A stretch of DNA of 64,000 bases from Antedon mediterranea (lineage: Eukaryota > Animalia > Echinodermata), in contig NC_092679.1 of the NCBI RefSeq assembly GCF_964355755.1, positions 16,847,432 to 16,911,431 on the forward strand, read 5' to 3'. This document shows positions 6,721 through 47,100 of the stretch, in pieces. The notes below the pieces were generated by a model. It was not told where the DNA came from. It worked only from the letters and a program-made list of their open reading frames with translations, and did not search any database. Position numbers and translations under genes: made by a program. Position 1 is the stretch's first letter. Each line of letters starts with the position of its first letter.

Positions 6721-7077
6721 TCATAGACAGCCTATCTATATAAAATATTATTATTTCATTGCTAATGCCAAGGTATTATTTAGGCCTGTTTATTTTCAGG
6801 TTGAAAGCAATGGATAAAGAGAGATTCAATTCTACAACAAAAGTCAAACTCAAACTGATAATTAACAATGTTTCCAGTTAATTAATGTTAATTATTTTAA
6901 TAGATTGTAGTGACCCTAACTACCTTACTGTTTGTGTATGGCTGTAATATTATATTAAATGTCATCACAATTAGTAAGGTTGTGAGGCTTCACAATTTCA
7001 AACAACTCTTCACTTCTTCATGTGGATGGATTAAAAAATACTGTGAGTATTGTACACTCTTTATATGAATATATCAT

Positions 7078-9745: not shown

Positions 9746-9769
9746 CTGCTTCAAATATTAATATTGTCC

Positions 9770-11295: not shown

Positions 11296-12029
11296 AAAAA
11301 CACGAACTAGGTTGTAAAAAGTGAAGGAAGTCATTATATTTTATTATTGTTTGGTCTACCCATAGTTATAGCAGGGAAGAGTTAAATTTAACTCTTCCCT
11401 GGTTATAGGTAATAAAGGATGCCTATCATAGTCAAATGGCAATAACTGATTAGCCGAGACCAATGACATTTAAAACAACTCCTACTTAAAATTCCCTACT
11501 TATACAGTACAGCAGCTTTTTGATTGGCTGCAAGTTTAGTTTTCTGTTCGTTCATCAGAAATGGTATACATAATTATTAATCAATAAGATTACTGGATTT
11601 CTTTAGTATTTCTGACACATTTCCAATCTTAATTGAATTATTAATGTAATGGAAATTGGTCATAGGCCTATTATAGCAACATATCATTTCTGGAAGAGTA
11701 TTACGGTCTGTATAGATCGATGTTAAAACACACGTCCTCATTTATCAAATAATTCATTCACTGCACATTTATTCTGTTAAGAAGAACTGGGACCCTCAAT
11801 AGAAGCCAAAGCATGTCTCATGATGGCCTCTACAATACATATCAAACATAAAAAGATATGGAATATTTTTATTTTTACAGCGGCACACGTTCATCATAAA
11901 CGATGCGTTCTTAAAAGTATAAATTTAAACAGCAAACGGATACAAATCAATAGGGTAATTAGGAACAAAAGAATAACACATTTTCAAAACCCATCGACTC
12001 GATCTCTTGTATACAGTAAATCTAACAAA

Positions 12030-15000: not shown

Positions 15001-16496
15001 AGATACGTGATCAGTTATCAAATGACGACTACACTGATCATATCCAACAATGTGATATATGATATTAATATAAATTATTAATGAGGTAGATATTGACAGA
15101 TACGTGATCAGTTATCAAATGACGACTACACTGATCCTATCCAACAATGTGATATATGATATTAATATAAATTATTGATGACGTAGATATTAAAAGATGC
15201 GTGCTCAGTTATCAAATTCTGACTACACTGATCATATCCAACAATGTGATATATGATATTAATATAAATTATTAATGAGGTAGATATTAAAAGATGCGTG
15301 CTCAGTTATCAAATTCTGACTACACTGATCATATCCAACAATGTGATATATGATATTAATATAAATTATTAATGAGGTAGATATTGAAAGATGCGTGCTC
15401 AGTTATCAAATTCTGACTACACTGATCATATCCAACAATGTGATATATGATATTAATATAAATTATTAATGAGGTAGATATTAAAAGATGCGTGCTCAGT
15501 TATCAAATTCTGACTACACTGATCATATCCAACAATGTGATATATGATATTAATATAAATTATTATTGAGGTAGATATTAAAAGATACGTGCTCAGTTAT
15601 CAAATTCTGACTACACTGATCATATCCAACAATGTGATATATGATATTAATATAAATTATTAATGAGGTAGATATTTAAAGATGCGTGCTCAGTTATCAA
15701 ATTACGACTACACTGATCATATCATCAACAATGTGATATATGATATTAATATAAATTATTAATGAGGTAGATATTTAAAGATGCGTGCTCAGTTATCAAA
15801 TTACGACTACACTGATCATATCATCAACAATGTGATATAGGATATTAATATAAATTATTAATGAGGTAGATATTAAAAGATGCGTGCTCAGTTATCAAAT
15901 TCTGACTACACTGATCATATCCAACAATGTGATATATGATATTAATATAAATTATTATTGAGGTAGATATTAAAGGATACGTGCTCAGTTATCAAATTCT
16001 GACTACACTGATCATATCCAACAATGTGATATATGATATTAATATAAATTATTAATGAGGTAGATATTTAAAGATGCGTGCTCAGTTATCAAATTACGAC
16101 TACACTGATCATATCCAACAATGTGATATAGATTATTTATATTAATTTTGATGCGGTAGATATTTAAAGATGCGTGCTCAGTTATCAAATGACGACTACA
16201 CTGATCATATCCAACAATGTGATATAGATTATTAATAATAATTATTGATGATGTAGATATTAAAAGATACGTGCTCAGTTATCAAATTATGACTACACTG
16301 ATCATATCCAACAATGTGATATATGATATTAATATTAAAATTGATGACGTAGATTCTAAAAGATGCGTGCTCAGTTATCAAATTATGACTACACTCATCA
16401 TATTCAACAACGTGATATAGATTATTAATAATAATTATTGATGAGGTAGATGTGAGATGCGTGCTCAGTTATCAAATTGTAACTACACTGATCATA
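12030..16496 (-). repeat. Tandem array of the same 97-bp satellite in reverse orientation (about 46 units)
   Basis: Unit AAAGATGCGTGCTCAGTTATCAAATTCTGACTACACTGATCATATCCAACAATGTGATAT is the reverse complement of the left-array core. Period 97 (e.g. 13201 to 13298). Confidence 0.95.
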
Positions 16497-17102
16497 ATAC
16501 TGTACACATAGTCCTTATGCAATTAGACATTGATTTAGTAGTACTACATATCATTTGTTAAATTAAGAATGTTGTTTCTGTGTTATTAAAAAACTTATTG
16601 AAATTTTTTAAAGTAAAAATATCAGTATTGATACCTATAAATTTGTATATCATAATAACATGCTTGATATTATAATAATGTGTTCTTTATTACAACTAAG
16701 AAACAATTATGTACGAGGATTATACACACTGATAGCTCTCAGTTATCAAAAAACGACTACACAATATAGCTCAGATTTATCATCATCCCCTTCGAAAAAG
16801 TCTACGATTAAAATATCGATTTAATAATGTATTGTTAACCTTTGGTACTTTTCAATCATTGCAATAATATATTCTGTTTTTAAACGACACTACAAAATAG
16901 TCTTCACTACCAGAAGGTAGACTAAAATATAAATATATAGCCCACTGAAAATTTATTAAAACATATTCTCAATCCCTTACACATACAGTACAGAGTGTTA
17001 GAGAGTAATTGGAATTTTACCCACAATACTTTGCTAGACCACCCTTGTTTCAATTGCAAGTATGGCGGATGGTTTGTCATCATAACAGCAAAGATGATTA
17101 GA

Positions 17103-23100: not shown

Positions 23101-26100
23101 AGTAAACCTATAAACTCTTAAGTTCTATGGAGTATTTGGCAATGAAAACTACATATAAAGTACTGAGCAGTAGCATAAAAACCTAGATTTACAGTATAAA
23201 GTACTGTACAAAAAGCTAACATAACCAATCAATTTGTTATAGAGCACTTAGCATAGCTTCAGGCTATAGATGTTCCCATTGTTACAGTAATTATCTCTCA
23301 GATACCTATCTGCTGTTGACATTTTGGGTCATGTACTATTCTGCTATTGGTTGATTATATGTGCCCTGTACATGTATGTCATCATAGGTGTATGAATCAT
23401 CAAGGTACATAATAATCTATTCTATTTATAATCCTATGGTAAATTCAGGAATTGATTTTTTTTTAATTCATTAGCTATTTATTTATTATTTTAAGTTGTT
23501 TATCATTTTTTGTTTGTTTAAATAATAATATTTCATATCTTAATATTTGTTTTGTGTTTTTCCTTCAGATCAAAATTTCACAAATTAAAATTCGGAACTG
23601 ATCCTTCTGGGGAATTAAAACCACCAACGTTTGAAGGAGGTATGTATAAATTTATACTTTGATACTGTGTTTGAATTAAGAATAAATTCTTAAAGATATA
23701 TTGTCCCCTCAAAAAATTATTTTATACATTTTTTAATGAATATCCAAAAATTGGATCAGAAAAAAAAAATTTTTACATGAAAAAAAATTTCAAATTGACT
23801 GGAAATCAATGGGTTTTTAAAAGAGCCAAAATATTAAAACCAAAGCACTATCAGTGTCAGGCAAAAATCGGAGACAATTTTAGACTTACTCATGATGGAA
23901 TTTGCATTTAATTCTGAGGTAGGACTCAAACCCAGGACCTACAGATCACTACCCGACGTTCATCCTCTAGATCATTAAGCTTAACTCACATTCTTGTGTC
24001 TGATTGGTAGTTGTTATTTGATAATAAATTAATAATAAACCACAATGATGCTTTTATTTTGTTCCCCATCTTTCGGATTGGACATTGAGAACTAGGAATG
24101 TGCTTAGTTGTTAGGTTTTCATCAACAGAACTATACAAAGATTACCATACAGAGTTTGGTATTTACCATTGTCTCTTATGTGATTTATTAAAGTGGTCAT
24201 TTGTTCGTCACACCTGATTTTATTTCTTTTTTTTTTTAATTTTCAGATGATATAAGTGAAGATGACTCTGTTATCTCTCCAAATGCACAAGTCAATTTCA
24301 AACAAGGAAGGCAGTTACTTAGGCAGTAAGTAATCCTTATGTGTGTCACATGACTGATATTGTGTAAACAAATGCAGTGGGAGCGGGGATGGTTATTGTA
24401 TTACAAATTGTAAATGAAACATAAATTATAATGTCACCTTTCTTTATGACTGACATTGACAACCTATTGTTCATGGAACCATAGCAATACACTGTTGTGT
24501 GACTGTTATACACAAGTGGTTGTGATACAGTGTCGTGTGCTACCTGTATCATAGGAACAATGTAAAGATCTGTCTACACTATCAAACTTTATGTGACAAA
24601 AAAATGTGATGTGCCCATATATGGATCACACTTTTTCTGTCAAACTAGTTTGATAATGTAGACAGAGCTTAAGAGACACTATATGGATTCTAACCTTACT
24701 GATCCCATTAATTAATTAATTTGATGCCAAAAATATAATGCTTACCTTATTAAAGTGATTCTTACCTTAGTGAAATAAGGAGGCAAAGAGTATTACTCGT
24801 ATAGACTGCCTCCTCTCATAGTGTTTATGTGCGAGTCATATGTACGTTTAAAAGTTTTTAGTGTTGGGCTTGAAACAATGTGGTAAAGGTAATAAATTAT
24901 CTCTACTAAAGGTATTAAACCGGGATTTACACAACTTAAAACGATGACCTCGCCATAATACATAATTTACCTCTGTTTAAACTTGTTTCAGATATTTACA
25001 AGAGATTGGTTATACCGACACAATCCTAGATGTACGATCAAACCGAGTGCGGTCTTTACTTGGCCTACAGTCCGGTGAACAGAATTCAAATAATGTAGAA
25101 AGTGATGGTACCTCACCTGTAGAGCCATTAGTGAACGGAGAGAGCCCAGCAAAACCAAACCGATCAGACCCAAATGCAATTAAAAGGTATTGTAATGTAT
25201 AATTATTCCATTAATATACTATATAAATAATGTATAAACTACATTTAAATCCATTTGATTTTTTAATTTTGTATCATATCCTGTTCATTATTGTTTCACA
25301 TTTAAACAGGTTTTTATCAGATAAAAAAAAACGTTGAGCTATTCTTTAGAATGACGCATGGTGGAAAATAGTGTGTAGTATTTGCCATTTATAACTGCCC
25401 TATCCTGCAGCCAATTTCCGAGTGCAGTATTTTTAACGGGCCTAGCCTGACAATTTTTAAACTCCACTCCCAAAGACTTGTAATAGGTATCCCAATGAAA
25501 GCGCACAGAGGGGTATCACTTTTGAAATATTGACGAAATTCGAAAAAGTAGTATGACTTTGATGTTAAATAAATCGTATTCAATCTTAATTAATACTTAC
25601 AAAATTTATATTGTTTGAAAGTACTTGTTTTAATCTATGTATAAGTGTGTTTATAATTAAAATTAATGAATTAGTTGCCGAGAAAATGCGATTTTAAAAC
25701 GGTTCTAAAATCCCGTCGAGCCGATTTCCGCGCGTTGAAAACCTCATCGGAAAATCCCCATCAGTTTTCAAAACACGATCGCACGATTACCATTGGAGCT
25801 AGCGGATTAATTTTTGTTGTATGTTATCAGGCTTTAAATAAGCTTTAATTTGATACGAAAATCGTCTTCTATAAATAGGTTTTTCGTAACGAAAAGGTAA
25901 TTTTTGTGACAAAAATCCAATTTTGATTCACCGTTTATGGAAAAATATTATGGATTTTGGTATTAAATTATAGCTAAATCTACATTGAAATCGATAAAAC
26001 ATAGTTTACAAACGTATTGTGCATGGTAATTGAGCGAACTACATTTTAAAATGGTGCATGAGGCGTAAATCCCGTTCAAAATTTTAAAGATCCAACCATT

Positions 26101-29100
26101 ATAATCCGGTGAATATTGTAGTGAGTAAAATATTGTACTCTAAAATACGCGCGTGTTTGTTGTGGCGTTTTCCGTTAAATACATTAATGCACCCTATCAG
26201 CGAATGGTACGTTCCATATTTTGAACACGTTGTTTAGTTTTCCTCGCTCGAGTTCGACCGGCTCGACGCGAGATGTGTGACAGCAGCGATGTCGGAGATT
26301 GACATGTCCTTTTCCGTCGTAGAATATCTGGTTTTACACATTAATTTAACAACTTAAAATTGATGTAATGTGCGGAAGATTTATTATGCAAGTATACAAT
26401 GCAAATGCGTTAGGTTAAAATGTACCGAGGAAATTTATTAAGCTAATTTACCAACGTTACATTTGACTCTGTATACGGCGGCCGAAAGTCATTAACTGCG
26501 ACCGAAATACTTTAACGGAGCGACTACTGATCGCGAGTAAGCCGTGACTTGGCCTAAACTTTAGCTCCGTATTTCAATTTAATAACGTAATAATACGAAA
26601 AGAAAACAATTTTTATAATGTTATATATACTATTCAGGTAAACAATTAATTGTTTTAATTAACATTGATTATTTTAAATGAGTTTATTTTGACCCATACT
26701 GTGCGTTTGCCTTAAAAGAGCATATTTTACTTAGCAGCCCGGCTTAGATTTGGTGTCATAATCATATGGGCCTAAAATCTTGTTTTACGTATTCAAAAGT
26801 TATATATAATAGTATTTATGATTGAAATTATAAATATAAAGTATATTAAAATATTCTAATAATTATACTTACCGAAAATTAGTGTAAAAGAAAGGAAACA
26901 GTACACACCGTTTTTAACATACTTTTTCATTTTTTCTTTTTATAATTTTAAATTTCACCATTAAAACAATTTTTTTTTTTCATATACACATCTAAAATAT
27001 ATTTATTAATGAAATATACACTACATTCTAACAAGTACAAAAAAAAATTCAATGAATTAGTACAGTAGTTCAAAAGTTACAGATCATTGAAAAATAGCAG
27101 TTTTTTCATTTTTTTAGGGAATTCCAGCAAAAATGGGCGTTAAATGCTTTCCTACCACTTTGCGGACCAATAATTTAAAAAATAGGTTTCGTTGAGGCTC
27201 CAAAAAAAATAGAGTTGTACAGTCTATATCGTGCCTAGCTTACCTGGATAAACCAACATAAGCCTCTCTCTCCGACGAGAGGTAAACATTACGAAAAGAA
27301 GAACATTAATAACATTAATTTTTCCCCACCCCCGTCGGATAATGGATCAGTCCGCCACCAGTACGCCCTCAAGTGAGACACACCCACTTATCATCGTCAT
27401 CATTTCTTTTCGTAACGTCGTTGTGTACGTACGTCTTTTCTGAACACATTCCTGGAATTCCTGAGGAATTTGCGATAAAGACTTTATACTGTAGACTGGA
27501 AGAGAAGAATAGAGCAAGAAAACGAAGCTAAGTGTAGTAGATCGTTATCTTGTGGTTGGATACGTTTAGAATCGTTACCCTTGGCTAGTTGCCAGGAGTT
27601 AAAATTTAGCGTTGTAAGCCGTTATCCAGTGTGTTTCACCTGGATAGAAATACTGGAAGATCTTTTGTTGTTCGTTAGGCTAGTGGGGAAAAGTAGGTCT
27701 GTTAGATCACCATGCCTAAGCAGGAGTGTGTTAAATGTAGGGGTCCCCGCTCTACCGTGAAGTGGGACCGCCACTTGGAGTGCATAAATTGCCGCACGTG
27801 TACCGAGTTGTCGCCGTGCGATGTTTGTGTCCGCTGGACACCGTCCAAGTTCAAATCGCTCACTAGGCCTAAAGAACGCACGGAAGCTGTACCACCTCCG
27901 GAGGTGGGTACCGCTGATACGGCAGGCCCTCCTGTCGTTGCGCCGGAAGTTAGCCTTCCAGATATGCCTGCACCGGCTGCGGCCTCTGCGGTTCCGGGGG
28001 TGAATGAGATTTCTCCGGGGTTACTGCAAGCCATTGTTGCAGCTGTGAGAGCTCTGCCGAGGGATGAGCCTGAGGTACCCTCTCAGATTAGACCTCCTCC
28101 CCAGATTCCATACATTGATGTTGGCCCACAGCAGACCTCGTTTTTCGATGGTTCGTCCGTCCGGCAAAGGGACTACGATAGTGACAGGACGATGGCCTCG
28201 CTCTCTGACGATGATAGAGATAGCTTACGAGAGCAGGCCGGGCCAGGGGAGGAAGGTCTGCAGGCGCTAGTTATGCGGACGGTCCCCGCGGTGCTGTCCT
28301 TTCTCGGCGTCGATTTCACGTATCGCGAGCCTAAACATACTCCTTCGTCTAAGCGGTTTTCCACTTTTGGCGTACGCACGCCCTTTAAGAAGGTATCTTC
28401 GTGCCCGGTTACGCCTCTCGATCCAGAACTTGTGGAACGTGTGGAGCTGATCGCTAAGGAGTCCAAGATTCGTAGGCCTATGCCTTATAGCCTGTCATCG
28501 GCTTTTCCGGTGCCGCAGAAACAATTCGAACTGTACATCGCGGCGCCGAGCGTCCCGGAGGCAGCGAAGGAACGGGTCCGTGAGGACCAGAACCTGGACC
28601 CGTCCAGGACTAATTTTTTGAAGCCTTCGGAATCCCGCACAGAGGACGTCCTTACGTCCGTCGACAGGGCCGCACGCGAGACGCTTAGAGCCGCCTCTAT
28701 GGCCGGGTACTTGCTATCCTTTCTGGCTGATCCAGAACATCCGCCCCAGGGCGATTCGGACGTGATAGCTCTACTACAGCAGATCATGGGCCTGGTTGTT
28801 GATCAACAGGCAACGATCTCATTATCTGCGGCCGCGGCCCGTCGCGTTAACGTCTTGGGTGCAACTGACATCGCACCGACCGATTTCCGTAGGTTTACTA
28901 CGTCTGACTCCTTCGGGGCGCAGGACTTGTTCTTTGGCTCCTTCTCACAGAAGGAAGATAAATGGGCCCGTGAGAGGGAAGCTCGTCGGGAGACAAGAGC
29001 GCGCTTCCCGCAAAAACGCCGAGCTAGCAATTCACGCTCAAGGACAGCCGCACGACCGCCGCCTGCCCCTGCTGCTCCTCAGCAGATGCAGCCTCCCCCG

Positions 29101-32100
29101 CCGCCACCGGCTCAGCCTATGCAAAGTCAGGCTTCTACATCAAGACAGGCTTCACACCCCCCTCGCGGAATGCGAAATAGGGGTGGCAAAGGCGCCACCA
29201 ACAGGAGTGGTCGCCGGTATTATAATGTGAAGCGCCGGTGACGGCTTGGGGGCGCCCGTCCCTCCAAGCGAGGGCGGGCAGGTGGGGGGTCGCTTGAAAC
29301 GGTTTTCACGGGTTTGGGAGACCCTGACCACAGACAGATGGGTTCTCTCCACCGTGACACACGGGTATCGTATCGAATTCTCGAGCCCTCCGGTGAGCGG
29401 AGGTGCCCGGCACACGAGGATTCCGTCAGAGCCGGAAAAGAGTCAAGCGCTCATGACGGGCCTCGAAGCACTGCTCCAGAAAGGAGCTGTGGTGCATGTT
29501 CAAAAAGAACAACTTACGATCCCGGGACACGAATCCACCGTTTTCCTCGCCCAGAAAAAATCGGGCGATTGGCGACCCATCCTAAACCTCAAAAGTCTGA
29601 ACAAGCGGTACATTCGGCCCCGCAGGTTCAGGATGGAGACTGTCTCATCTATCCTGTTGGGGCTAAGACGAGGGGACTGGGCAGCCACAATAGACTTGAA
29701 AGACGCGTACTTTCACGTGCCTATTGCGCAAGAACACCAGAGTTGGCTGCGCTTCCGCATTCACGATCAGGTATACCAATTCGTAGCTCTGCCGTTCGGC
29801 CTCTCAACGGCCCCACGAGTGTTTACTCGTCTAGTGAGAACCCTGGCGGCGTTCTTTCATCAACACGGCATCAGAGTGTTCATGTACTTAGACGATTGGT
29901 TGATCGTGGCCCAGTCCAGGGACCAGCTGCTGAGCAGCTTATCTTTTGTCCGCCTCGTGACGGAACAAGCAGGGTTCATAATAAACGAGGAGAAGTCATG
30001 TCTTCTCCCTTCTCAGAACCCTCTGTATCTCGGAGCCCAAATAAATTTGGTTACGGGCCGTGCGTGCCCATCCATCGAGCGTGTGGCCAAGGCAAGAACT
30101 GCAGTGCTACATCTTATCAATGCTCAGGCTCCGACGGCGTACGACTGGCTACGCACCTTGGGGTCACTGGCCAGCTTCGTCGCCCTCGTTCCGTTCTGCC
30201 GGTTAAGGATGCGGCCTCTACATCTGCACCTTCTGGCAGCATACCGCCCAAGATCAGACTCTCTACACAAGGTGGTTCCAACGAATGCGTTCATTATCTC
30301 GCATCTCGAATGGTGGCTCGTGGAAGACAGGTTACTTGTGGGCACACCTATACAAAGGTCAATTCCGGAGGTCCGTGTGGAAACGGACGCATCCGAAGTA
30401 GGCTGGGGCGGTCACATACCGTCTCCGGACATTCGCGTCTCCGGCCTCTGGTCGCCCGAGGAGACGCGCGCCCACATCAACCTGCTCGAACTTTGGGCAG
30501 TCGAGCGCTCATTGGAGGCTCTTCTTCCCCATCTGGCAAATCGCCATGTTCTCGTCAATTCCGACAACACAACCGTCGTGGCATACATAAACAGGCAAGG
30601 GGGTACACGGTCCCCCACGCTATGTTGCCACACGTGGACGTTGCTAATGTGGTGTATAAGACACAACATCCAACTGTCAGCGGCCCACATTGCGGGTCGT
30701 CTGAACATAGTGGCGGACGCACTGTCCCGTCCACTTCTACGTCCTACGGAATGGCGTCTTCTTCCAATAATCGCCACCCAGATCTTCAACCACTTTGGGC
30801 GGCCCCATGTAGATCTGTTTGCGACGTCAGGCAACACGCAGCTCCCGACGTTCTGCAGTCGATATCGGGATGCACATGCGTGGGCGGTGGATGCCCTGTC
30901 CATACCATGGGACAACCTTTGGGCATATGCCTTTCCACCGATTTCAATACTGCCACTGGTCCTGACGCACATTCAGCGCCATCAATGCCGAGTCCTACTA
31001 ATAGCGCCGTATTGGCCCAGGCAGCCGTGGTTTCCACTGCTTCTAGGCCTTCTGTACGATCAGCCGTTACGTCTTCCGATTCGGAACGACTTGCTGACGC
31101 AGGGCCGAGCTCGGTTTGCTCTACCGAACCTCATATCCCTCGACCTGACTGTATGGCCATTGTCAGGGATCGTTTCAGAGACTCAGGCATTCCAGATGGT
31201 CCGGCCGCCCTCGCGGCGAAATCCCGACGGGAATCCACTCTTGCTGTCTACAATAGCCGATTAAAACACTTTTTCGAATGGTGCAAGCGCCAGAAGACCG
31301 ACCCTATGAAAGTGACTTTGGGCCAGGTCTGCGCTTTCCTACATTACCTGTTTGAGTCAGGTCTGCAGGTTCGCACCGTATCCGGCTATCGGTCTGCCTT
31401 GGCTGCAGTAATTCCGAATTTTAAAGACGGCTCGACCATCTCTTCATCCCCTGCAATTTCCAGTTTGCTTCGCGGGATGTTTCGAGAACGGCCTCCTACT
31501 AAGGCCCTGATTCCACGTTGGGACGTCAATGTCGTCCTAGCCGCTCTTATGCGTCCACCCTTTGAGCCCCTGAGTAGGGCATCACTTTACAACCTGACTC
31601 TCAAAACTGCCTTTTTGATTGCACTAGCCTCGTGCAAGCGCAGAGGTGAACTGCATGCTCTTTCTCTGGAGCCAGGGCACATCAGGTTTGAACGGGGTGG
31701 CGCGCGGTTGGTTTTTAGAAAAGATTTCCTTGCAAAATCTCAGACATTGAACTTCTCGCCGCCGACTGTGTTTATTCCCACCATTGCTGCATATTCAGGG
31801 GTTGAGGAAGACAGACTTTGGTGCCCGGTGCGGGCACTAAAGTTTTACATCAAACGCACAGAGTCCATTCGGGTCTCAGCGTCACATCTGTTCGTATCGA
31901 CAGTTGCACCCTTCCGACCGGCTGCTCGGTCGACGCTGGCAAACTGGGTCGTGGCAGCCATCCGGGCTGGTTACGACTCCACAGATACGCCTCCTCCGGC
32001 ACATATGCACCAAGTGCGTGGCATAGCCGCTTCATGGGCGCTGTTTGCTGGGGTGCCCCTTCCAGACATCCTGCAAGCGGCATGGTGGCGATCACAGTCC

Positions 32101-35100
32101 ACCTTCACATCCCACTACCTGTCGGATACCTCCGCAAACCAGTCTACGGTGGCGGCTTTAATCTTGAAGCCCAGACACTAGGTATGTATGACAATGTTTA
32201 CCTTGCCTCCCGCCTCCGACTAGACTCTAGTCCGGTGCTACACTGGCTTATGTTGGTTTATCCAGGTAAGCTAGGCACGATATAGACTACACAAACCAAC
32301 AGTGGTGTTGGTAGTCTATGAGTGCCGCTTACCTGGATAAACGCCCTCCCTACCGTCCCCTCAGGCAGGTGGTCTTGAGAAATGATGACGATGATAAGTG
32401 GGTGTGTCTCACTTGAGGGCGTACTGGTGGCGGACTGATCCATTATCCGACGGGGGTGGGGAAAAATTAATGTTATTAATGTTCTTCTTTTCGTAATGTT
32501 TACCTCTCGTCGGAGAGAGAGGCTTATGTTGGTTTATCCAGGTAAGCGGCACTCATAGACTACCAACACCACTGTTGGTTTGTGTAACTCTGTGATATCT
32601 ATAGGTTTAACAAAATTCAAAACTTTTAACTAATTATTGTAAAAGTTATAACCTTTTAAAAATGCTTCCAATTTCAACTGCAAAAAACACCATTTTTAGG
32701 CAAAAAATCGTATATTTTTTTACCACTTTAAATAACCATAACTTTAGAACGGGTAATCGGATTTCAATCATTTAAATCGCAAAATGCTAATTACATTAAG
32801 TTCTTTATGGTTAACTGAAAGAAAATGTAAAAAAATTAATCTGAATTTTTTCATTGGGATACCTACTTGTAATAAGACTTTGTTTATGTAGAACATCTTG
32901 TGATGTTTGTGTTGTTTACAGGATTCCCACCTTTAAGAAAGATAGTGAATGAATTTATCCTTGTAAATTCACCTAAATATAAAAAAAAACTTTTTATTAA
33001 AAATGGAAGTGGCAATTCATTGAATAGAACAATCTTTCAACGTATAAAAATATCCTTCCCATTCATAAACTATGACATTGCTAGAAAAGAAATAGACTAT
33101 AAGAATTACAAAACGAATTACTCTTTAGTGTTCTCAATTTAGTTTCTGTTTTTGTATCAAAAGATCAGCCCCTTTTTTTGTGTTTTTTTTATGGGCATTT
33201 TATCACAATAATATTATTTTCACTTGGCAAGGGCATAATTTGAGATAAAATCCTGAAAAAGTCAAAAATACAAATTGATATAAATCGCCTTCATACAATC
33301 AAATGTGCAATCTTATCATGAAAGCTATTTTTACCGTTGAACAGTGAAATTTCACTTGTGTAAAACAGAAAGTACTCGTCGGTACTTCTAATATTTTGGC
33401 AACTTATTCAATGTAGTCGTGACACCCCTTTGATAACCTGTACGTTTAGATATGCACTTAAATCTGAACTATAAATCATTTTAGTATCCTGTTTTTCTTT
33501 CTTTTTCTATTCAATGATAAGTTGGTATTCTTATTATGTACCTTTACTTGGCATTAATGTCATTTTTAATACCCTAAAAAATTCAGATGTACTGTAAGCT
33601 CACCCTGAGTTTTGATTAATTAATTTTACGCACACACAGGAGCACACGGTTTCATAGACAGTATGAAATTGGTATTAAACGTGGTTCCCACTAGTACGTC
33701 AAGCAACGTAAGAAAATGCCCTTCAAATAATTGTGTTTTCCCCTGCGTCAGAAAATCAAAACCTGATTGTTGTACTTCAACATTGCCGTAGACTTTAACC
33801 TGGTTTACTCCACATACTTTTGAGTACGTGTTGTACTACTGTATTTTTCCACTGTTCGTTTGCGTTGCTGCATGAAATCAAACTGATTTGATTTCTTGTA
33901 GCGATGTTTTGCAGCACTGTTGCGTCATTCGTTCCCACTTGTGATTGCGCAAATATAGCACTCTGCGTCGATACGTCACTGCATTGTGTTCTAGTGGGAA
34001 TCACACTTTAGACTTACACATTGTTTTCAAGAACACAATTTTGTACAATTGCTAAAAATATTATCTGTTGATATAAGTTTGCGGTACACCACGTATGTCG
34101 ACGTTTCGATCAATATGCTTTGATCGTCCTCAGGAGTGTGAATGCAGAAAGTCATGTACCGCAAACTTTTGATTTTGATTTTTGCCATGCAAATTACTAA
34201 ATAAATGCGTGAATCTCACAAAAATAAATGCATATTTAGTTCAATTATGAGATTAAAAACAAGCAGAACTTCCTTTTGTATAGAAACTGCTATCTTGCTT
34301 ATGTTTACATTTCATTTTATAGTTGTCAGTTTCTCCCTTTATTTAAATTAATTATTTATTTTGCACGGATTGGTAAACTACTTTTAATTCCTGAGCTCAC
34401 GTTCATTCTGTTTAATTAAGATACTAATCACTTAGTAGGAAAGATGCGATATTGATTAATATTTGGTTTGATGTTTTATTCATCTTTTTCATCATTTTTC
34501 ATATTAATTTATGACATGTTTTGTACGGAATCTAAATTAAAGTTAAATTACGATTTTCTTGCTACCAGATTCCGGCTTCAGTCTGAATGTTTAGACTTAG
34601 ACTCGCGCTTATTTGATCAGATTTATAAAACAAATAAATTAATACAATTAATAGAATCCAGTAATAGGTTGTTGACAGATTTGTTTATATTATGTTAATT
34701 AGGCAAGATAAAAGAATACCTAACCAGTTACCCGAGGGCGTATTAGATAATGTTCTTTCGTCGTTTGAATTACTTGGAAGTGAAAACGTTGAAGAAACCG
34801 AAAATGGTGACCTAGAAGATGGCGGTACAGCAGATGACGAGGCTGATGATAGTATGAACAAGAATATGGCAACTATTATTAAAAGGAAAAAGGTAATTTA
34901 ATTTTTTATAATAATTGTTACATAATATACATACTACAAGAGAAAATGTCTGTATGTATCGTTTTTTTAAAATAATAATATTTTTTGTTTGTATAGTGCC
35001 ATTCCAACGATCATTGATCATGGCGTAGACTTGCCCAAGTCTGTAGTTATTGTTTTTTTTATGTTAGTCCACCAGTCGGCTTTTTGATGTTTGTCTGAAA

Positions 35101-38100
35101 ACTACAAGTTTACAACAAGCTCAAGTAGTATACGTATGGAACACCATTTGTGCCAAAATATTTATCTTTTTACTAATATTAAGTCAAAACTCCGTCTAGA
35201 ACCTAGATTAAGCTCTAGGCCTAGCTGTGAATAGGTTGGTGCTGTATCTTAGGTTAATGCCTAACATTGCAGTGCAATATAAAAAGTAGGGCTAACATCT
35301 TAAATACTGCATCCGTTCACAATTTATAATTTCTAAAAAAAAGAACAATCAATATTTACTCACAAAAACATTGTGATTATAATGTGTAGCATTATTAACT
35401 GCTTTTGGTCATTTCAATCTACTTCCTTTGACAGCAAAAATTAGAAACTTGATTGTTCCTTAGATAAGTTTGAGGAGGCAGCCAAACATTTAACAGGGAC
35501 CTTAAGCGAAACGAGATGGCCCTGACAAGTGCCGATCTTACACTTTTCTTATCAGGAACGAGTGGAAATGACGCGCATTTGTTTTATAATTAGAAACTAT
35601 TAGTAAAGTATCTAATTTCAAACTTTAGTTTTTCATTTGATTTTTTCTGGACTTGTTGTACTTGTACCTTTAAAAACAGTGGGTGATGATTGTTTATTTT
35701 ATAAGTGACCATACAATGAGTGTTTAGAGAAATGTTACTGGAGAAACAATATAAGGTAAGTCATAGGGTAATATATAAGTAACTATTTTCAGTTTATGTC
35801 ATCTATATTACGGTGATTTAATTAAATATGTTAGCAATTAGTTGCTAATTGTCAAAACACGACAGCGATGATTACGGCTGCAACATTATGGGAGGCTGTT
35901 TCCAGATGTGTTTGATCCAAAACATTACTAGGGTAATAATGTGAAGCGCTTAGATGCTTTGTGCATTAAGCTCTATAAAAGGAACGACGTATTATTAATT
36001 ATTATTATTATTAAATCATGTTAAATTTATTTTGTTCAAAAAATCAGCATGTAAATCTAAATTATTATTTGGATGCATGTTTTTTTTTTTAAATATAACT
36101 ACAGTAGAAATATTTAATATTAATTCATTATTATAAAATACAGAATTGGTAATTATTATTTTACCTTAATATGCTCAATGTTTCGTTATAAATGTTAATA
36201 CTAAATATTAAATAATGCAGTAAAATGCTATAAAATAAATATTTAATTTTGTCATATTAAATCAATGTTAAATAGTGAGATTTTTTTATTGTTGTCCAAT
36301 CTATATTGGGTTAAAAATAATCATGATGAAACGCTACATTAAACATTTAATCCTGTCTGTAGGCTAATGAAAGTTGATGTGGCCCTTCTGTACACCCCTG
36401 ATAGGCACACGTTTCACCCCTGTAACAGGAACTAACTCTAATTCAATTTTCATTATTTTGATAAGAGCTGGCTAAAGTACCTCTGTTTTGTCTTAAAAAG
36501 TTGACTGCGCTGTACTCTTAGTAATAATAACAACTTGTTTTTATTTTAATTATTTGGCACTTTTTGTATATTAATTTTTTAAAAGAAATATATATCTTTA
36601 CACTTGACTCCTACTGGAATACTGGAAAAAAATATTTTTTTCTCCCTGACATCAGTACTTTTGTGCCAATCATTTTCATTTTTCAGAAAATAGAACTGAA
36701 AAATTGGTTTTTGTTTTTGTTTTTTTAAAGACAAAGAGAGAGACGTTCTAATCTAAATCATGATCATGAGAAAAAACAATTGAAATATCTGCCAAAGTGA
36801 AAAAAAAAATTGCTTAATTTTCTTGATATATGCACTGATTATTAAACTACTATGGCTCAAAAACACTTTTAAAATTTAAATCTCAAAAGAGATCCATAAA
36901 TATTTATTGACTTAAAGGTAAATGTCACTTGAGTGTGATTGTTATGGCCACAGTGCTATCATGGTATTTTAAAATCAGATTTTAAATAATTTTCCCTCTT
37001 TTTCTTTGCAGCCTATTCTTGGGAACGAAAGCATGGTGGAAGATGTTGTCACAGATCCAGACACGGAAGAGGCACTGGCAGAGTTTGACTTCCTTGTGGC
37101 AGAGGGCGGCGAGGGAGCTGGAGAAGCACGCACCACTGGCGACGGTACTGAATGGCTAGGTAGTAAATTAGCAAACAAACTAACACAGTGGTCGTTGTGT
37201 AAGAGCTACAGTGGCGTCCTCATTGACAATCGTGTAATTGTATGACCAATTGACGTAATGTCTGTGTTGGGTGTTCAATCTTCTGCTTGCCCTCCCTCCT
37301 TTATTCCTTCATTTTCTATTGTCCTAGCATCTTGACATGTTATCTGTATATCAATATTTCCTACAGTCCGTAGAAAAGTATTTGATAAAAGATTGTTTAA
37401 CTTTGATTAACAAAAAACAGTATTTAGAAACTAATAGGTTTTGATCTCTAATCTAACTATATTAGAGGACTAGTAGATGATTTATTTAAAGGTAGTCCCA
37501 TAGCATCTATGTATGAACTGTGGCAGGTCAAAATGCTTTGATGTCTCCATGCACTTAAATTAAATGAAATTTCCATCCTACAATACATGCATATTTGACA
37601 ATTAGACAAGATTTTCTTGTGAAGGGGAATACACCAACTGTATGCCACTGTATCTACAGCACATATAATAGTCAATAGGAAACACAAACTCTACTCCAAT
37701 CAATTTGCACTATGCTTTAAGCTCTGTCTACACTATCAAAAAAGTGTGATATGTTCAAGTATGGTAGTGGCATGCCCAAATATGGTAGTGATATTGATAA
37801 ATATGGTATTAATATGACATCATCATCATTAAATGGGCACATCATATTTTGTTGTTCCATAAAGTTTGATAGTGTAAACAGAGCTTTAGTTTATAATCCC
37901 ATATAGTAGAACACCTGTTAATGGAACACTTTAGGGACCCAACAAATTGTCTCCGTAATAATAGGGTGTTCCCTGAATAGGGGTGTCCCAAAGAAGGGGA
38001 GTCTACTGTATTAACAGCCACGTTTAAAACTTTCATGATCGATAGAAATGGCTAGCTCATATGAATTTAAAAATAGAATATTTCCATTTGCATGACAAAT

Positions 38101-41100
38101 TATTGGGCCAAAACAATCGGCAATTAAAGAATTTAGTGTATTTTGAAGAAGTCCATAATATATTACATTTTAAAGTTTTAGGAGCCCAACTAATGAAATG
38201 AGTCATGCCAGTAGCGTTAAGCTCTGTCTATTATTATTATCAAACTTTATGTGACAAAAAAATGCGATGTGCCCATACAGTATATGAACATGATGATGTC
38301 ATATCTGGGCATATCACTACCATATCTGGGCATATCACTACCATATCTGGGCATATCACCAGCATACTTTTAAACTAGTTTAATAGTGTAAACAGAGCTT
38401 TAGCATCTTCTTAACATCTGTAGTAGTTTGCCAAATCTTGTTAGCATCAATAAAGTAGATTGTGGTTTAAGTTGGTCTGTTCTGTAGGAATATAATTGTT
38501 TATCTTTTGTCAGATACAAGCCAGACATAGAAGGTGTCAATGTAATTGATTGCCTCATTTGTATAGAAAACACTTCTAATTCACACTTCCTTTTTAAATT
38601 TGTTTGCCAAATATTACCCATAATAAACACATCCTTAAATCTCAGACATGTTTTTGCTGGTTTGATATAGACATCAACCTTACATCTTCAGGATACTTTG
38701 TTTTGTAATTTGACATCTAAACTTAGTACAGTACAGTGGATTCCAATATTGTGACGCCTCTCTTTAAGGGGACAAATGTTTTTTTTTAACCCTACAAACC
38801 TCTATTAAGGGGACATTGTTGGTCCATGGAAACTTCATGGAAACTTTTGGGTCCCAAAGGTATCTCCTTAAGAGCTTTAATATATTTCCAATTAAATATA
38901 TAATTTTAATTTAATTACCTCTAACTTTTGTAGGGTTTTATGATTGATAGGTATACATATTATTAATATAGAATTATTTAAAATGTCGGGAATATTAAAT
39001 TAACATATTTTTATTTCCAGTAAATAATAATTTTTTTTTATCAGTTCTTGCCAATATAAACTCATTTTGCATGCTGTGGAATGTTTTATTTGCCTGTACT
39101 GTATACTAACCTAATATTTGGGTCCACGCAAAGAAAAAAAAAGAAAAACACACCATGTTGGTGGCCTTTTAGCCTAACCCATATCTGTTCTGCTTGCAGA
39201 CACGAAATTGGACCTCTCTCCTACGAGTGAGGACTGGGGGGTTGATGAGGGAATGATCAGTAAGCTAAAAGAAGACTATAAAAAGGCACGGAAAGGCAAG
39301 AAGCCTGTCGTTCGTAAGTTGAGGGCGCTGTTCATCAGCATGGGTTGCATGATTGCACCTCGTATAACATCGCTTTAACGCTTGTTCATTTTGCACTACG
39401 CATTCATTACACACGGCTAAGGCGCTGTGCTTTTATTAATTTTGTTACGCTCTTTATTATTCTTACTGCTAACAAAGCTTTTTATTTAGAAATTTTAATA
39501 ATTTGCTATTAAAATATTTCAATTTTTTGACATTTTTTTTTATACTTGAATTTCAAGAGTATCAATTGTAACGTAAAAATAGCTATATTATAATAACATT
39601 TTATTAGTACAGTAAAATTATCTTGTATGCTGACCGCTGTTGCTACAAAAGAAAAATATATTCTGTTTATATTATCTGATTGGATGGGGTATAATTATAA
39701 TTACTGGCTAATTACAAACGACTTATCATCTCTACCTTATATAAACAATATTATAAATTTATCTGTAATCTCTAAGGGATACACAGACGAAGTACATGAT
39801 ACTTTACTGTTCCATAGGCAGTTGAAATAAACGCCGCAGTTTTCAGATGCATTTAAAAAAAAATCTAGAATATCCTCAGGCTTATCCCACGGACCGATTT
39901 TAGGCCTCTAGATATCTTTTCACTCCTCTGCTCAAAAGTAAAATGTAATGAATAGAACCCCAATTTTTTAAAGCATTGAAAACCTTTGATTTGTCAATCC
40001 AACCATGACGTCTTTCATCATTTGCATGCTTATTTTATTTTCGTTTGTTCACATTTTTTGTATATTTAGCATTTTTATTTTGCATGTTTCAGTTGCATCA
40101 ACTAACTCACTACACCATGATGTACCAAGTTTTAATGAAAACAATTTTTTTAGGGTTTTCTAATAGGACGAGTGATCGTCTCAAATCTCAATAGATTAAT
40201 ACCATAGTATATGAAATTGAATACTAAGGAGTTGTTTTATACTTTTGAATGTAATACAGTCAACTATCTCAATAGCGGACTCTCTGAAAACCAGAAACTC
40301 TCCCAATACCAGACTTTTCTTGAGGAGCAAAAGGTCATAAATTGATTTTTACCATTAAAGACACACCATACTTACATTTGGTCAGCCCAAATGTGTCCAG
40401 TATTTAGAGAGTAAAACCTGTTTTCCTGTCGACGCTATCATTAACAATAATCGGCAATCTTCTATGTAAAAATTGAAATGTTAACGATTTACAGGAAAAG
40501 GTACTCGCTATCGTTATCATTTTAACTAGATAGTTTTCAAACGATCGTCGTTGAACTGTTAGCGATCAATGTTGATAACGTTGACAGGAAAACAGGATTA
40601 AAATACACTGAATATGCAAGTATTTATGGGAGGTAGATGTTGATCAGTTAGTGGAGTACATATAGAATACCCATAGTTGTAGGATGGAGGAAATATTTAT
40701 CTGTGGTTGTAGTGTTTTCCGGCGATTCATAGAGCATAACAGTTAGATCCTCTTTAATAATAAATTAATGAAGGAGAAAAGTCGCATCACCCAGGATGTT
40801 CCCTTAATTTTGAACATCAACTCTACACACTGTGGTATGGCTTGTACTGGTGTAACATGTTTCTCCTCAGTCCAAGCTGCGTTCGTACTTATAACTCGGG
40901 CAAAATAATGTTCTGTCTTCATCTGTGATACGCTATACTGATGTTTTAATTAGTTTTTGTAATATTAATACTCGTGGTCTGGGAAATTTAGAGTTGTTGA
41001 CCTAGCATTTTTAGACATCATAGCTGTACATGTTGTTACTAGGGATCACGTCTGCTGTGGTTTTATCTTTTTTATGTAGCTTGGATTGCGTTTTGCACCA

Positions 41101-44100
41101 TGGTTTGTGAGCACTACATGTTATTGTTTAATGATGATAATCATCTATATGCAATTTGATTATATAATATTAATATTAATGTAAAAATATATTAAGTGCT
41201 TTTAAATTGCATATTTTTGCCTACTATGGGAAATGCTGGAATGAATTGTTCATTATAACATTCAAATGCTTTTATTGTTTATAGAACATTTTTTAAACTA
41301 TTGATATTATACAAAATGAATATATAGTACATACAATACCTAAAAATATACTTACTTCGCAAAAAAAACAAACTTTTAAATACAGTATACATGGCTATTA
41401 TCACAATACTTATACAATATTACTATATATTAAATATATTGTATTGATGTTTTACAAAATTCAATATAAAATATTGAAGTACACTAACTTTATATATATC
41501 CTTTCTCATAATGCTATTAAATAATAGCACAATACATTATTTTATTGGAATTTAAATACTGTATTTCATCTAGTAAATAAATATTAATAATTGCTTTATT
41601 AATTTTGAAAATATATGCATATTCAAATTATAAATTTACTAAACTATAAGTAAAATAATTAATTTAAAGTAAATAAAAATATTAATCATTGCTTAAATAA
41701 CTTTTGTATAAAATATTATTTATTAATTACTCTTCCTACTGACAAAAATATTTAGGCATTTTTTAACATCCATAGTATTACCCAAAAATTGCTATAATGC
41801 CATACTTTGTAATTCATAAACATTTCAGAAAAAATAACCCCTTACTTTTTATATTTACATGTGCCCTGCTCTGTTGCAATATTTAGCCAAGTACTTTATG
41901 TATAGCACAATTTCATTTTTTTCTCAATTGATTTCATCCCACACAATCAGTACAGTGTCTGTGAACATTTTTTTTACATTTACATTTTATTATGCATTTA
42001 TATTTAGCTCTTCTTAAATTTTAAATCCCAAAATATTAGAAATTTTATATTTGACATTAAATTAATGTGCAATTATTGTCCCATTCTCTCATTTAGTAAT
42101 CCATGCCGTACCAACTCTGCAAACAACAAAGCCCGCCCTCTATCGACAATGTGTTTGTCAGCCATACTTCAAACAAGCTTATACTCCACAACAAAAATTT
42201 TGTTCGGCTTTATTGCTTAACGTGCGAGCTTGATGTTAAATTCAACATCCATTCTTTTAAGTATTTTTTTTTTTGTAATGAATGTGAATTCTGTCCTGCG
42301 GCTTTAAATAAAAAGCTTAACATTTGTAATCTGAGGCATAAAAAAGACAAGTTTAATTACTCTCAAATCCAAAATACAACGCACAATTAAGTCGCATGAA
42401 CTGTGGTATGGATTAACGGAAAATTAACCGTATTAATAAACATTTAGCTTTGGAGAAAATATTGTCTTGTAACTAGAAATGTATATTAAATATGTACTCT
42501 GCAATATTATTGCCTTGCATATAGTCATTTACTACTGCACAGTTGACTTGCAAATAGCTTTTAATGTCTTACAGGTCCTAAACGTTCAGCGTTACAGGCG
42601 ATGTTGGAAAATCTGGGTCGTGATGAGGGAATTCCCCCTCCCCCTCGAGGAAAACCAATACAACAGGAAGTTGATATCCCAGAATCTGCAGGTAAACAAA
42701 CTTCAATCCAAGTTTCAAACATCAAAATCCTTTTTATTCTGTATGGTATATATATGCTAAAAACTCCTCTTAATTGTGATTGACAGCTCAAGGGGCGTTT
42801 CCAGCAGGGCGTAGACCAATGGTAGGAATCGGTGAAGATGAGGCAATAGAGACGGCGCTCGGGTTAGGAGATCTTGCCAAATTAACAGTTTCAAATGAAG
42901 CAGACGCCCTTTCCAGTTACGATGTAAGTTTTTTCTGCTTCTATTTCCTAAGTATTTATAAAAAATATCTATTCTAAGTATTGGTTGGTTAAAAAATTCA
43001 GTAGATAAACCTACGGTAATTCATTTTAATTTTAGGTGAATGCCGCTGCCACTAAAGACACATTCAGGAAAACATGGAATCCAAAGTATACATTACGAAA
43101 TCACTTTGATGCTGTTCGAACACTGGCCTTCCACCCCGTAGAACCGGTACTTATCACCGGATCAGAGGACCATTCACTCAAATTATGGAATCTAGACAAA
43201 ACAGTGCCAGCCAAAAAGTAAATAATGTGGAATTTAAATATCTGTTTTATTTTGTTATTTATTTTGTGCCAATATTTAGGTAACAGTAGGAGTGGAATTG
43301 CTTTATTTTTAGTATATAAAACAATGACACAAGATGGGATTTGAACCCAGGAATTTGGAATTGATAGGCAAGCATCTTAACCACTAAAGCGTGGTTCCCA
43401 CTAGCGACGCAACACAAGGACGTAACGCAACGCAAGTGAATTGACCAATCACAAGCGATGGCTTATTCGCTTGTGATTGCTAACTGTCTATAACTTCGCT
43501 TGTCATCGGTTAAAACGCTTGCGTTGCATTTACGTCCTTGCGTCAAGTTCTAGTGGGAACCACGCTTAAGCTACAAATCCTCTCCCCAAGTTAATAATTT
43601 GTTCTTAAAATGTTTCTTTGCATAGAGTAAAAAAGTAAAATTCTAATACTGTACTTCCAATAATCACCATTTCGTTTGTTCTTTTCTTCCAGAACTGCAT
43701 CATTGGATGTAGAACCAATCTATACTTTCCGAGGTCATTCGTAAGTAGACATGTTTTACGGTTGAACTGGGAAAACTTTTAATACATATTTTTTTGTGTA
43801 TAAATAATCCCTTTTTTACTAATTATTGAATACACACTCACTCAATAAAGCTCTGTCTACACTATCAAACTTTATGTGACAAAAAATGTGATGTGCCCAT
43901 ATATGGACATGATGATGTCATATCATTTTGATAGTGTGAATAGAGTGTCAGAAAAATTATGTGAGTGAGTGTTCAAGATTTGACTCTCATTTAAGTAAGG
44001 AAAGCATGTATGTGTAACTGTCATGTCATAAATTATCATTATAGGGCGGCTGTACTCTGTCTATCTATCAGTGCAGATGGGTCCAAGTGTTTCAGCGGTA

Positions 44101-47100
44101 GTATGGATTCTACTATTTGTTGTTGGGGTATGCCAGATATAAATATGGATCCATATGATTCCTATGGTACGTACAATTGTCGGTAAATGTTACAAAAGTA
44201 ATCTGCCGAAATTACATATAAGATAAGATAAGATAACTTTTATTGATCCTCAAAAAGGAAATTCATTGCTCGTCATAATAACAAAGAAAACACTATAAAA
44301 ACAAATATAGCATAAAACCATTCATATAAAAACATCTAAAAAATTACAATATAAAATTATCTTCTTGACTTCCTGTTGTACTGGATGATACCGGAGGGAA
44401 TAAAGGATTTAGCAAATCGATTTGTTTTCACACTGAGGAGCCTCAATCTACCACTTGGATTAAGTTGGTCTATGATCACTTTGTGGAGAGGATGAGAGGC
44501 ATCCGACTCAATGCGTTCGAAATCTTTCTGGAGGTGTTCTAGGTGCACTTCGGTAAAGGAAGGCAGTTCCAGACCAATCATTTTACCAGCCCGACGGATG
44601 AAAGTTTCAAGGCGTCCTTTATTCCCTCCGGTAACATTACCAGCCCAACAGGAGAGGCAATACGTCCAAACACTACATATAACGGATCTATAGAACGAAA
44701 GTAACATCAAATCACAGGAGTTAAATTTATATAAAGTTCTCATACAATACATTCTGGGACTTAATTTTTTGCTGATGAAGTCTATATGGTCTCCCCAACT
44801 CAGTTTATCATTGAAAACAATTCCTAGATACTTGTACTGGTCAACAATTTCAATTTCTTTACCTTTGATAGTGATTGGTTGAAAATTAAATTTATGTTTA
44901 GTCCTAAAATCAATGATCATCTCCTTTGTTTTTGATGCATTTATTTGGAGATAATTATCGTCACAAAATTTAACAAATCTTTGTATTTCGCTACGATAAT
45001 TTTCATCATTGTTTGAAACTATGAGACCAATAGTGCTAGTGTCATCAGCGAATTTAACAACGGGGCAAAGCTCATCATTTAAAGATCTGTAATCCGCCGT
45101 ATACAAGGAATATAATTTAGGTGCGTTGACAGTACCCTGAGGAACACCGGTGTCAGAGGTTACGATTTCTGACTTAACACCATTAATATTAACAAATTGT
45201 TTTCTATCACAAATGAAATTTAAAACTAAACGAACAATCGGACGGGGAAACTCCATATTCAACATTTTGTCTGCTAAGATATGGGGTTGTATGGTATTAA
45301 ACGCAGATTGAAAATCAAAATACATAATACGTGCCGAGTGGCCTTTCTTTACATTATCTAGATGTGAATACAATTTATGTAATTTAAAATAAATCGCATC
45401 ACTGGTACTACGGAGTGATCGGTAAGCAAATTGCAACGGGTCTAACACTTTTTCAGCATAAGGTTGCATAATTTTTAAAATAATACGTTCCAATATTTTC
45501 ATCGCGACAGACGTGAGTGCAACGGGTCTCAAATCATTCATGCAGTTAATCTTAGGTTTCTTAGGTACCGGTATTATGCATGAAAGTTTCCAAATATCCG
45601 GGAACGCATGATAAGAAAGACACATATTGAAAATAAATGTAAATATACCATCAAGGTGAGGAGAGCAGACCTTAAGTACTCGTGGTGGATTTAATGGACT
45701 TAAACAATTTTTGTTTGCCTAAATTACGTTGATTTACATATTATTATTATTATCTTTATTTCCCAGATTGCAGTATATTGAAAGAACCATTGATCGGCCA
45801 CACCAATGCAGTGTGGGATATCGCATTCGACGCCACCAAAAACCACCTTGTATCGGCCTCGGCTGATGGTACTGTAAGGTTATGGAACCCTCAACAGAAG
45901 TCTCCACTTCTAAATAAGTACATTGGAGAAAAATGTAAGATATGATATGGTTTATCTCTCAGTCATATCTCATGACTAACAATACGGTAGAACCTCTATT
46001 TAAGGGACACCTTCGTGACCAAACAACTTTGATTATCATATTTCATCATTGTCTTGTCTTTCTTTAGCCTATGGAGTTCCAACCACTGTTGATTTTGTAC
46101 GCTGTGACCCGTGTCAAATTATCGTTGGCTACAAATCCTCAGATGCTGTCATCTATGACCTGGAGACAGCGAAACCAGTGATAACGCTAGATAGCAAGTT
46201 ATTGTCCGACACTGATGGAACCACACAGATTAATTGTGCAATTAGCCACCCAACTCTACCTATAACCATTACTGCACACGAGGACAGACACATACGCTTC
46301 TTTGATAATAATACAGGTAAATCATATATGTCTCTATACCACAAATAACATACATAAAATGTTTACAAAATCTGTTTTATCTTTGTATTTGTGATTTTTA
46401 TTTGTTTCTGTCTTTTCCGTTGGTTTCCTGTATAATTTTTACCGTTTTTAAATACTTTTATCAGTTTATACATTTTAATGTAAATACACAGTAATTCAGC
46501 TTCGGCTGCGGCAGTGATATGAATAAAAGAATATACTCAAATAATGGTTCTATTTTATAACGGCTTCATAGTGGTCTAAATAAACTAGAAAATGTGAATT
46601 GTCATGCATATTTCTATTCATGTTTTAGGTAAAATGGAACACAGTATGGTGGCTCATTTGGATGCTGTAACTAGCCTGGCCATCGATCCAAATGGATTAT
46701 ATCTCCTATCTGGAAGTGAGTATTTGAATAATGTCTTAACTGGTTTGACAAAAGTGTGATGTGCCCAAATATGGTAGTCATATGCCCAAATATAGTAGTG
46801 ATATGACATCATCATGTCCATATATATGGGCACATCACATAGTTTGACAGAGCTTTAGACCAATATGCTCTACGGTAACTACAATACTTTGAACCCATCT
46901 TTTTCTGTCTTGTTGTGTTTGACCAGATTCTTTACTTTCATTGCCTCGTCCTTTGGATGGGACATGATGTCACTGGTCCTTTTTTTAAAATTTTAATGGA
47001 TGTGGTCCAATAGGTGGTCTAATTCGGTGCCATTCTTTATAGATGATAGGTAAATGCCTACATAATAATTTACAACCTAATTAATATATTTTTATAGTTA

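Follow-up and report, generated by a model that had tools for sequence, protein, structure and literature searches.

A 64,000-nucleotide stretch of the echinoderm Antedon mediterranea genome (here the window; NCBI RefSeq assembly GCF_964355755.1, contig NC_092679.1, positions 16,847,432 to 16,911,431 of the forward strand) carries an intact DIRS1-like retrotransposon that has inserted, without duplicating its target, into a palindromic stretch within a DNA transposon. The explanation that we favor, with confidence somewhat better than even, is that the tyrosine recombinase (YR) of this element reads a short, loosely mirrored AT-rich site and that the perfect 16-bp symmetry of this particular target is probably a lucky extreme.

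The host is a high-copy, non-autonomous DNA transposon (25485 to 32864; strand not assigned) recognized by repeat comparison and contig depth, which is 2,014 bp long when empty and has terminal inverted repeats of 16 to 17 bp. A first-pass annotation of this DNA had proposed that the reconstructed integration site is a perfect 16-bp palindrome, and joining the flanks at 27220/32586 (27211 to 27220 plus 32586 to 32591) did yield one, which extends no further. The same annotation reported no target site duplication (TSD), and we likewise found none at the joined flanks, where a single A (27221 or 32586) can be assigned to either side. We numbered the target so that this A, which fits either side of the joint, is position 8 and the next base is position 9; the axis of the palindrome lies between positions 5 and 6, and mirror pairs add up to 11. 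The left part of the target (27211 to 27221, plus strand) consists of the left palindrome arm and the 6-bp core (27216 to 27221), with the A that it shares with the element end, and the right part (32587 to 32591, plus strand) is the remainder of the right arm; both were delimited by flank joining, by the empty site, and by comparison with a related element, L009.

The empty site is present as DNA: in four of four runs, contigs joined 27220 to 32586 with zero letters between them. (Runs X7 and X8 represent one sample, from which the window may itself derive, and X1, X2, and X4 other samples; X1 to X3 and X4 to X6 hold small shares.) Because all four runs join the flanks and the joint has a depth of 3,939 in X7, versus 500 to 650 for the main DIRS contigs, the empty palindrome is the normal state of this high-copy host element, the main contigs of which have a depth of ~3,470 to 3,570. 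The check that the annotation had suggested, a search for empty host copies carrying the 16-mer, succeeded as far as the joint is concerned; letter-by-letter identity across host copies is limited to the finding that no fixed difference fell within the 16-mer among the 40 difference rows listed, 758 further rows aside. Within the window, there was no further copy of the element, of the host transposon, or of the 16-mer (with fewer than 4 mismatches).

The window copy has a target base at position 9, and in L009, position 8 of the left end is occupied by a noncircle base. Taken together, these two sequences would place the crossover between positions 8 and 9, where the inverted terminal repeat (ITR) begins, 3 nt to the right of the axis. 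The insertion had been described as lying 2 to 3 nt off center; that it is off center stands, and the comparison with L009 would refine the distance to 3 nt. A crossover after the shared A would make 27222 to 32586 the extent of the element, with 27221 to 32585 fitting equally well from the window copy alone. The cut position coincides with the edge of a 6-bp core centered on the palindrome axis, and such a 3-nt offset is as expected if a Cre-like recombinase dimer made the cut, Cre itself having a 6-bp overlap. Furthermore, in three right-junction rows at 32288, all 27 contigs continue as element sequence as far as the shared A, and no row with a target core on the right was found among the 15 of 36 rows listed. 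This retention of the element core in 27 of 27 right-junction contigs points to the exchange of one strand.

Flanks of other copies were taken from contigs, at an 82% threshold and with sister families included for the X7 right flanks and at 92% for flanks collected with the internal complementary region (ICR) as the reference; in the latter set, the listed X8 rows comprised 54 loose ends among 69 partly placed contigs. At the right end, 42 X7 contigs exit with AA at positions 8 and 9 and then diverge (agreement, 0.44), and 21 X8 contigs exit into mixed flanks (agreement, 0.48). Right-junction rows of 21, 5, and 1 contigs, among the rows listed, all have A and T at positions 9 and 10, where the window copy has A and C, and three of three relatives (L007, L018, and L020) also continue with AT. 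On the left, position 7 is T in 11 X8 and 3 X1 contigs and A in a single contig seen in X2 and X3, and 6 X8 contigs have circle-like bases at positions 5 to 7. A second X2 left flank, the majority string of two contigs, was not counted; it seems shifted by one base relative to the motif, and its decoding assumes a tie rule. From these right- and left-flank rows, the usual target approximates (T)A|AT and lies in AT-rich DNA outside the host transposon. The earlier idea that the family may target the host DNA transposon was not borne out as a general rule, given the 42 (X7) and 21 (X8) contigs with unrelated right flanks.

The relatives came from 41 metagenome loci, among which L018 has both flanks, L009 has a left flank, and L007 and L020 have short right flanks. 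We excluded L024, which looked fused to its own ICR, and L036, which is identical to L026. An exact search for the 27-nt end stretch gave 0 matches in the metagenome contigs, the viral contigs searched contained no relatives, and the genome contigs searched gave 2 loci, neither with usable ends.

Since positions 3 to 8 lie wholly in the left flank, pairing across the axis can be checked without paired flanks, and six left-flank rows were available (X8, n = 11; X1, n = 3; X8, n = 6; the X2/X3 contig; L009; and L018). The innermost stem pair, 3/8, holds in the 11-contig X8 row and the X1 row and fails in the other four. Pair 4/7 fails in the 11-contig X8 row, where a majority G stands opposite a fixed T. 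L018, the sole relative with both flanks (41% YR identity), has an asymmetric target, although its flanks could be chimeric. Other copies do not, as a rule, sit in perfect palindromes or hairpins. A weaker symmetry is nonetheless visible. The X8 and X1 right consensuses have AATT at positions 8 to 11, and AATT also stands at mirror positions 0 to 3 in three of the six left rows (X8, n = 11; X1; and L009), with a chance per row of 0.02 to 0.05; the window copy has AGTT at positions 0 to 3 and AACT at positions 8 to 11. A short degenerate dyad at the target is thus plausible, if weakly supported.

The joined ends of the element fold into a long hairpin that is partly forced by the ITRs, with an inner stem in the right extension that is not. 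ICR arms enclosing 24 to 27 nt were found in 20 of 26 ICRs, the other 6 giving no arm pair under the rule used. The inner stem was at least 6 bp long in 16 of these 20, and 15 of the 20 beat shuffled sequences at P < 0.05 (two loci are identical). Across 9 loci of equal length, both partners vary in 6 of the 7 inner pairs, and pairing is kept in 94% of cells. With the register set by the ITR arms alone, pairing is seen in 100 of 133 cells (19 loci), versus 35 to 51% when the register is slid and 46% across families. The two-stem donor fold is therefore kept by compensatory changes across related families, the inner stem being conserved in its pairing rather than its sequence, and this suggests an integron-like insertion of folded single-stranded complementary DNA (cDNA). 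In L007, the ICR (L007:4645-4756) lacks part of the inner stem that is still present at the right end of the element; because of this loss, the copy can probably no longer restore its junction.

The recombinase (31177 to 32181, plus strand; 334-amino-acid [aa] translation) was identified by integrase-type domains in Pfam and by profile and fold comparison. It contains R156, K187, H278, R281, W303/304, and Y314, which we take to be the catalytic residues. Its nearest protein is a crinoid YR (78% identity), and it is nearest to Cre both by profile and by fold (Foldseek, E = 4e-9; predicted model with a mean pLDDT of 77).

The insertion could then proceed as follows. A Cre-like dimer would bind the half-sites RRT and AYY (usually AAT and ATT) that flank the 6-bp core of a double-stranded target, and one target strand would be cut where the core ends, 3 nt from the axis. 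The cut strand would be joined to antisense cDNA, the end-to-end junction of which would be folded as a two-stem hairpin, and the product would be resolved by replication, as in integron attC x attG recombination. Only ~1 to 2 shared bases would be needed, so the element triplet (GTC) may differ from the target triplet (ACT in the window, usually ATT). We advance only tentatively the more general proposal that DIRS recombinases insert as integron integrases do at attG, using a folded single-stranded cDNA junction and one strand exchange at a double-stranded AAT-N6-ATT target, recognized as two mirrored half-sites without a triplet match, with perfectly symmetric sites like the 16-mer as preferred hotspots.

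The resemblance to attC x attG would lie in a folded single-stranded donor with two stems, an unpaired spacer, and a cut where the outer stem borders the spacer and in a tiny double-stranded target consensus with one crossover point. On the other hand, the window element is a eukaryotic retroelement known here from its sequence, its recombinase is nearer Cre than IntI, and its spacer is shorter (3 x 4 nt); the likeness would accordingly be functional, the enzyme itself not appearing IntI-like. Integron attG sites are described, in the text available to us, as double-stranded sites that have a consensus of 3 nt and are cut in a single strand (10.1101/2022.09.11.507474), and IntI-type integrases as carrying an IntI insertion (PMC8138268, in the part accessible). 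Cre/loxP (PDB matches) and the Tn916/Tn1549 integrases (6en0 match) resemble the window system in fold, and the 3-nt cut offset is compatible with a dyad about a 6-bp core; unlike them, the window family lacks long specific half-sites and core homology.

Several observations weigh against this single-strand, mirrored-site interpretation. The left half-site is missing in three of the six left rows (X8, n = 6; the X2/X3 contig; and L018), though the alignment biases the six-contig X8 row against TT. Flanks taken from contigs are unpaired majority strings, in which hairpin targets, if in the minority, or a small number of additional insertions at the window site could escape notice, and 21 of the 36 ICR-reference rows lie beyond those considered. 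The flank agreement values, which we had considered as evidence, are above random at the composition of the window but are equaled by motif-free flanks of ~80% AT and lend no support. On the donor side, the 9 equal-length loci were picked for that length and the structure was read from the same loci, and the window element fits the common 3/7/4/7/4 layout poorly, pairing at 4 of 7 positions in that register, its own 7-bp stem being shifted. The hairpin could instead serve cDNA end joining rather than recombination. The recombinase, judged from the predicted model, is not IntI-like: Cre is the best match in the fold comparison, and the integron integrase 2a3v appears only at rank 45. Finally, even if a mirrored motif is assumed, a perfect 16-mer has a P of ~0.002, which requires luck or a stronger symmetry preference; selection of the site from a large scan is therefore still needed as an explanation. 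Palindromes of at least 16 bp occur at 16 of 58,594 host centers, more than two letters being used in 6 of these, and the chance of such a palindrome is ~1e-4 to 2e-3 per insertion, varying with the number of centers allowed. The palindrome is unlikely as a single draw, but the site was singled out by a reader within a very large scan.

These numbers bear directly on the simplest alternative, which is possible but which we doubt, namely, that the symmetry is pure coincidence, the family needing only 2 to 4 bases at the cut ((T)A|AT-like) with no left half-site and the palindrome being a chance pick of the large scan. The mirror motif is indeed missing from three of six left-flank rows, the agreement values fit random AT-rich flanks, the host transposon contains another perfect 16-mer (26640 to 26655), and the literature consulted gives a trinucleotide alone (PMC3266345). 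What coincidence leaves unexplained is that AATT recurs in three rows at a position preset by the palindrome axis (~1e-3 by a hand binomial, the 4-letter window having been chosen post hoc) and that the axis coincides exactly with the expected center of a 6-bp core. The opposite extreme, which was the reading of the first-pass annotation, has the family selecting long palindromes or extruded hairpins regardless of sequence. Such a site is rare by chance, only 0.12% of A|AY host sites bearing a stem of at least 6 bp; the single-stranded target folds with the cut adjoining the loop (-3.4 kcal/mol); and sequence-free symmetry across the cut would be invisible to unpaired consensus strings. We nevertheless consider it improbable, as pair 3/8 fails in four of six rows and pair 4/7 in the 11-contig row, the one paired target (L018) is asymmetric, and the target hairpin is weak.

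We give about as little credence to the palindrome in the high-copy transposon being a hotspot that holds a sizeable share of the family copies. The site does exist in many copies (depth of 3,939 versus 500 to 650 for the DIRS body), but at least 21 right flanks in X8 and at least 42 in X7, where the threshold was looser and sister families were included, are at other sites, about the copy number suggested by depth, and the empty-site depth is near the total host depth. A more serious competitor, realistic though short of probable, keeps the same loose symmetric target and replaces the single-strand step with a two-strand exchange from a double-stranded circle, the mismatched core being repaired later. 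Tolerance of a mismatched core is known from the target rules of Tn916/Tn1549. The Cre-like fold of the recombinase and the six left junctions with circle-like bases at positions 5 to 7 are compatible with such an exchange, and the standard model, as set out in the available portions of PMC7192593 and PMC3266345, uses a double-stranded circle. Against such an exchange, the three right-junction rows retain the element core in every one of their 27 contigs, and what is conserved in the inner stem is its pairing and not its sequence, for which a double-stranded site would have no need.

The anatomy of DIRS1-like elements and the trinucleotide model have been published (PMC3266345 and 10.1101/2021.08.05.455354, as far as their accessible text goes). 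The cDNA of DIRS-1 is a single strand, linear for the most part (Malicki et al. 2020, PMC7192593), and, in a source available in part, is reported to be antisense. According to the portion of PMC7192593 at hand, the specificity of DIRS recombinases has not been studied by experiment, and the accessible parts of that paper and of PMC3266345 contain no target symmetry or junction fold. A literature search, mostly at the abstract level, retrieved nothing that describes palindromic targets of DIRS elements or a DIRS junction resembling attC; the Goodwin and Poulter papers or supplements may hold target tables. By itself, the palindrome would matter little. The enzyme at this locus is intact, the empty site occurs naturally, and the triplet of the family differs from those of its targets, so that binding is separable from homology. 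If true, the mirrored-site, single-strand model would replace the triplet-homology model and bring integron-like chemistry to animal retroelements.

The element itself (27222 to 32586, plus strand; 5,365 bp, 54% GC), delimited by the ICR and ends, its open reading frames (ORFs), and comparison with L009, is an intact, ordinary DIRS1-like member. Its left ITR (27222 to 27407, plus strand) matches the right ITR (32378 to 32560, plus strand), which was found by comparison with it, over 170 bp at 100% and has a divergent outer part. ORF1 (27712 to 29241, plus strand) is labeled gag-like by its position and an N-terminal Cys cluster and has no Pfam match. ORF2 (29231 to 31264, plus strand) encodes a reverse transcriptase (Pfam RVT_1, E = 6e-23) followed by an RNase H-like region (RT_RNaseH, E = 0.0035, below the cutoff) and a C terminus that, from its motifs, we take to be methyltransferase-like; the Pfam search gave no methyltransferase domain match after the RNase H region. 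The ICR (32245 to 32342; strand not assigned) reproduces the junction of the joined ends. It is complementary to both of them and defines the ends of the element as had been claimed for it; it can form a long hairpin in either strand (z of about -11, partly forced by the ITRs). A 26-nt right extension (32561 to 32586, plus strand) contains a 7-bp stem with a 4-nt loop, independent of the ITRs (shuffle P = 0.005). The hallmarks of DIRS1-like elements are therefore present (ITRs, an ICR complementary to both ends, the right extension, gag-like, reverse transcriptase/RNase H, and YR ORFs, and no TSD), and the length falls within the 3,974 to 6,283 bp given in the available text of Piednoel et al. 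2011 (PMC3266345). Unlike most of those elements, the window element shares one base with its target and has no NTT triplet common to both ends and the junction: it begins with GTC, and the target continues with ACT or ATT. In the table of PMC3266345, an NTT triplet is repeated on both sides in 23 of 28 elements, so that it is usual and not universal.

The end and ICR sequences (32258 to 32320) are far deeper than the coding body and have variant ITRs; as this depth and these variants show, sister or non-autonomous DIRS families share the ends. A 469-bp contig placed at 32258 to 32288 reached a depth of 90 to 110 in X2 and X3, runs of depth ~2 to 4, and joins a DIRS end to one fixed flank resembling degenerate end pieces; it is a left junction that has been amplified or else a right end without the 18-nt hairpin. 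L042 and L043 are DIRS-type elements within bacterial metagenome-assembled genome contigs and are probably eukaryotic contamination.

The host transposon is flanked by 9-bp TSDs (left, 25476 to 25484; right, 32865 to 32873; both plus strand), seen in the sequence and in empty-site contigs, a 7-bp reading of the left one fitting equally well. With its TSDs (25476 to 32873), it sits in a very high-copy repeat (the 32753-to-33000 bin has a depth of 49,043 in X7), and 37 contigs show its own empty site, so that there are three levels of nesting: the DIRS element in the host transposon in the very high-copy repeat. The second perfect 16-bp palindrome of the host (26640 to 26655) lies within its 2 kb.

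Elsewhere in the window, long AT-rich tandem arrays with periods of ~97 and ~141 bp, partly mutually inverted, occupy 7060 to 16500 and include a perfect 30-bp palindrome (11372 to 11401). A self-complementary repeat of ~170 bp, resembling a miniature inverted-repeat transposable element, has at least 10 copies (2484 to 2660, 24559 to 24676, 37717 to 37897, 38216 to 38403, 43845 to 43928, 46738 to 46849, 51654 to 51829, 53358 to 53467, 55202 to 55354, and 61529 to 61704). A 453-aa frame on the minus strand (44357 to 45718) presumably encodes a reverse transcriptase of the non-long-terminal-repeat type, to judge from its motifs, and a short-period tandem repeat lies at 56629 to 57470.

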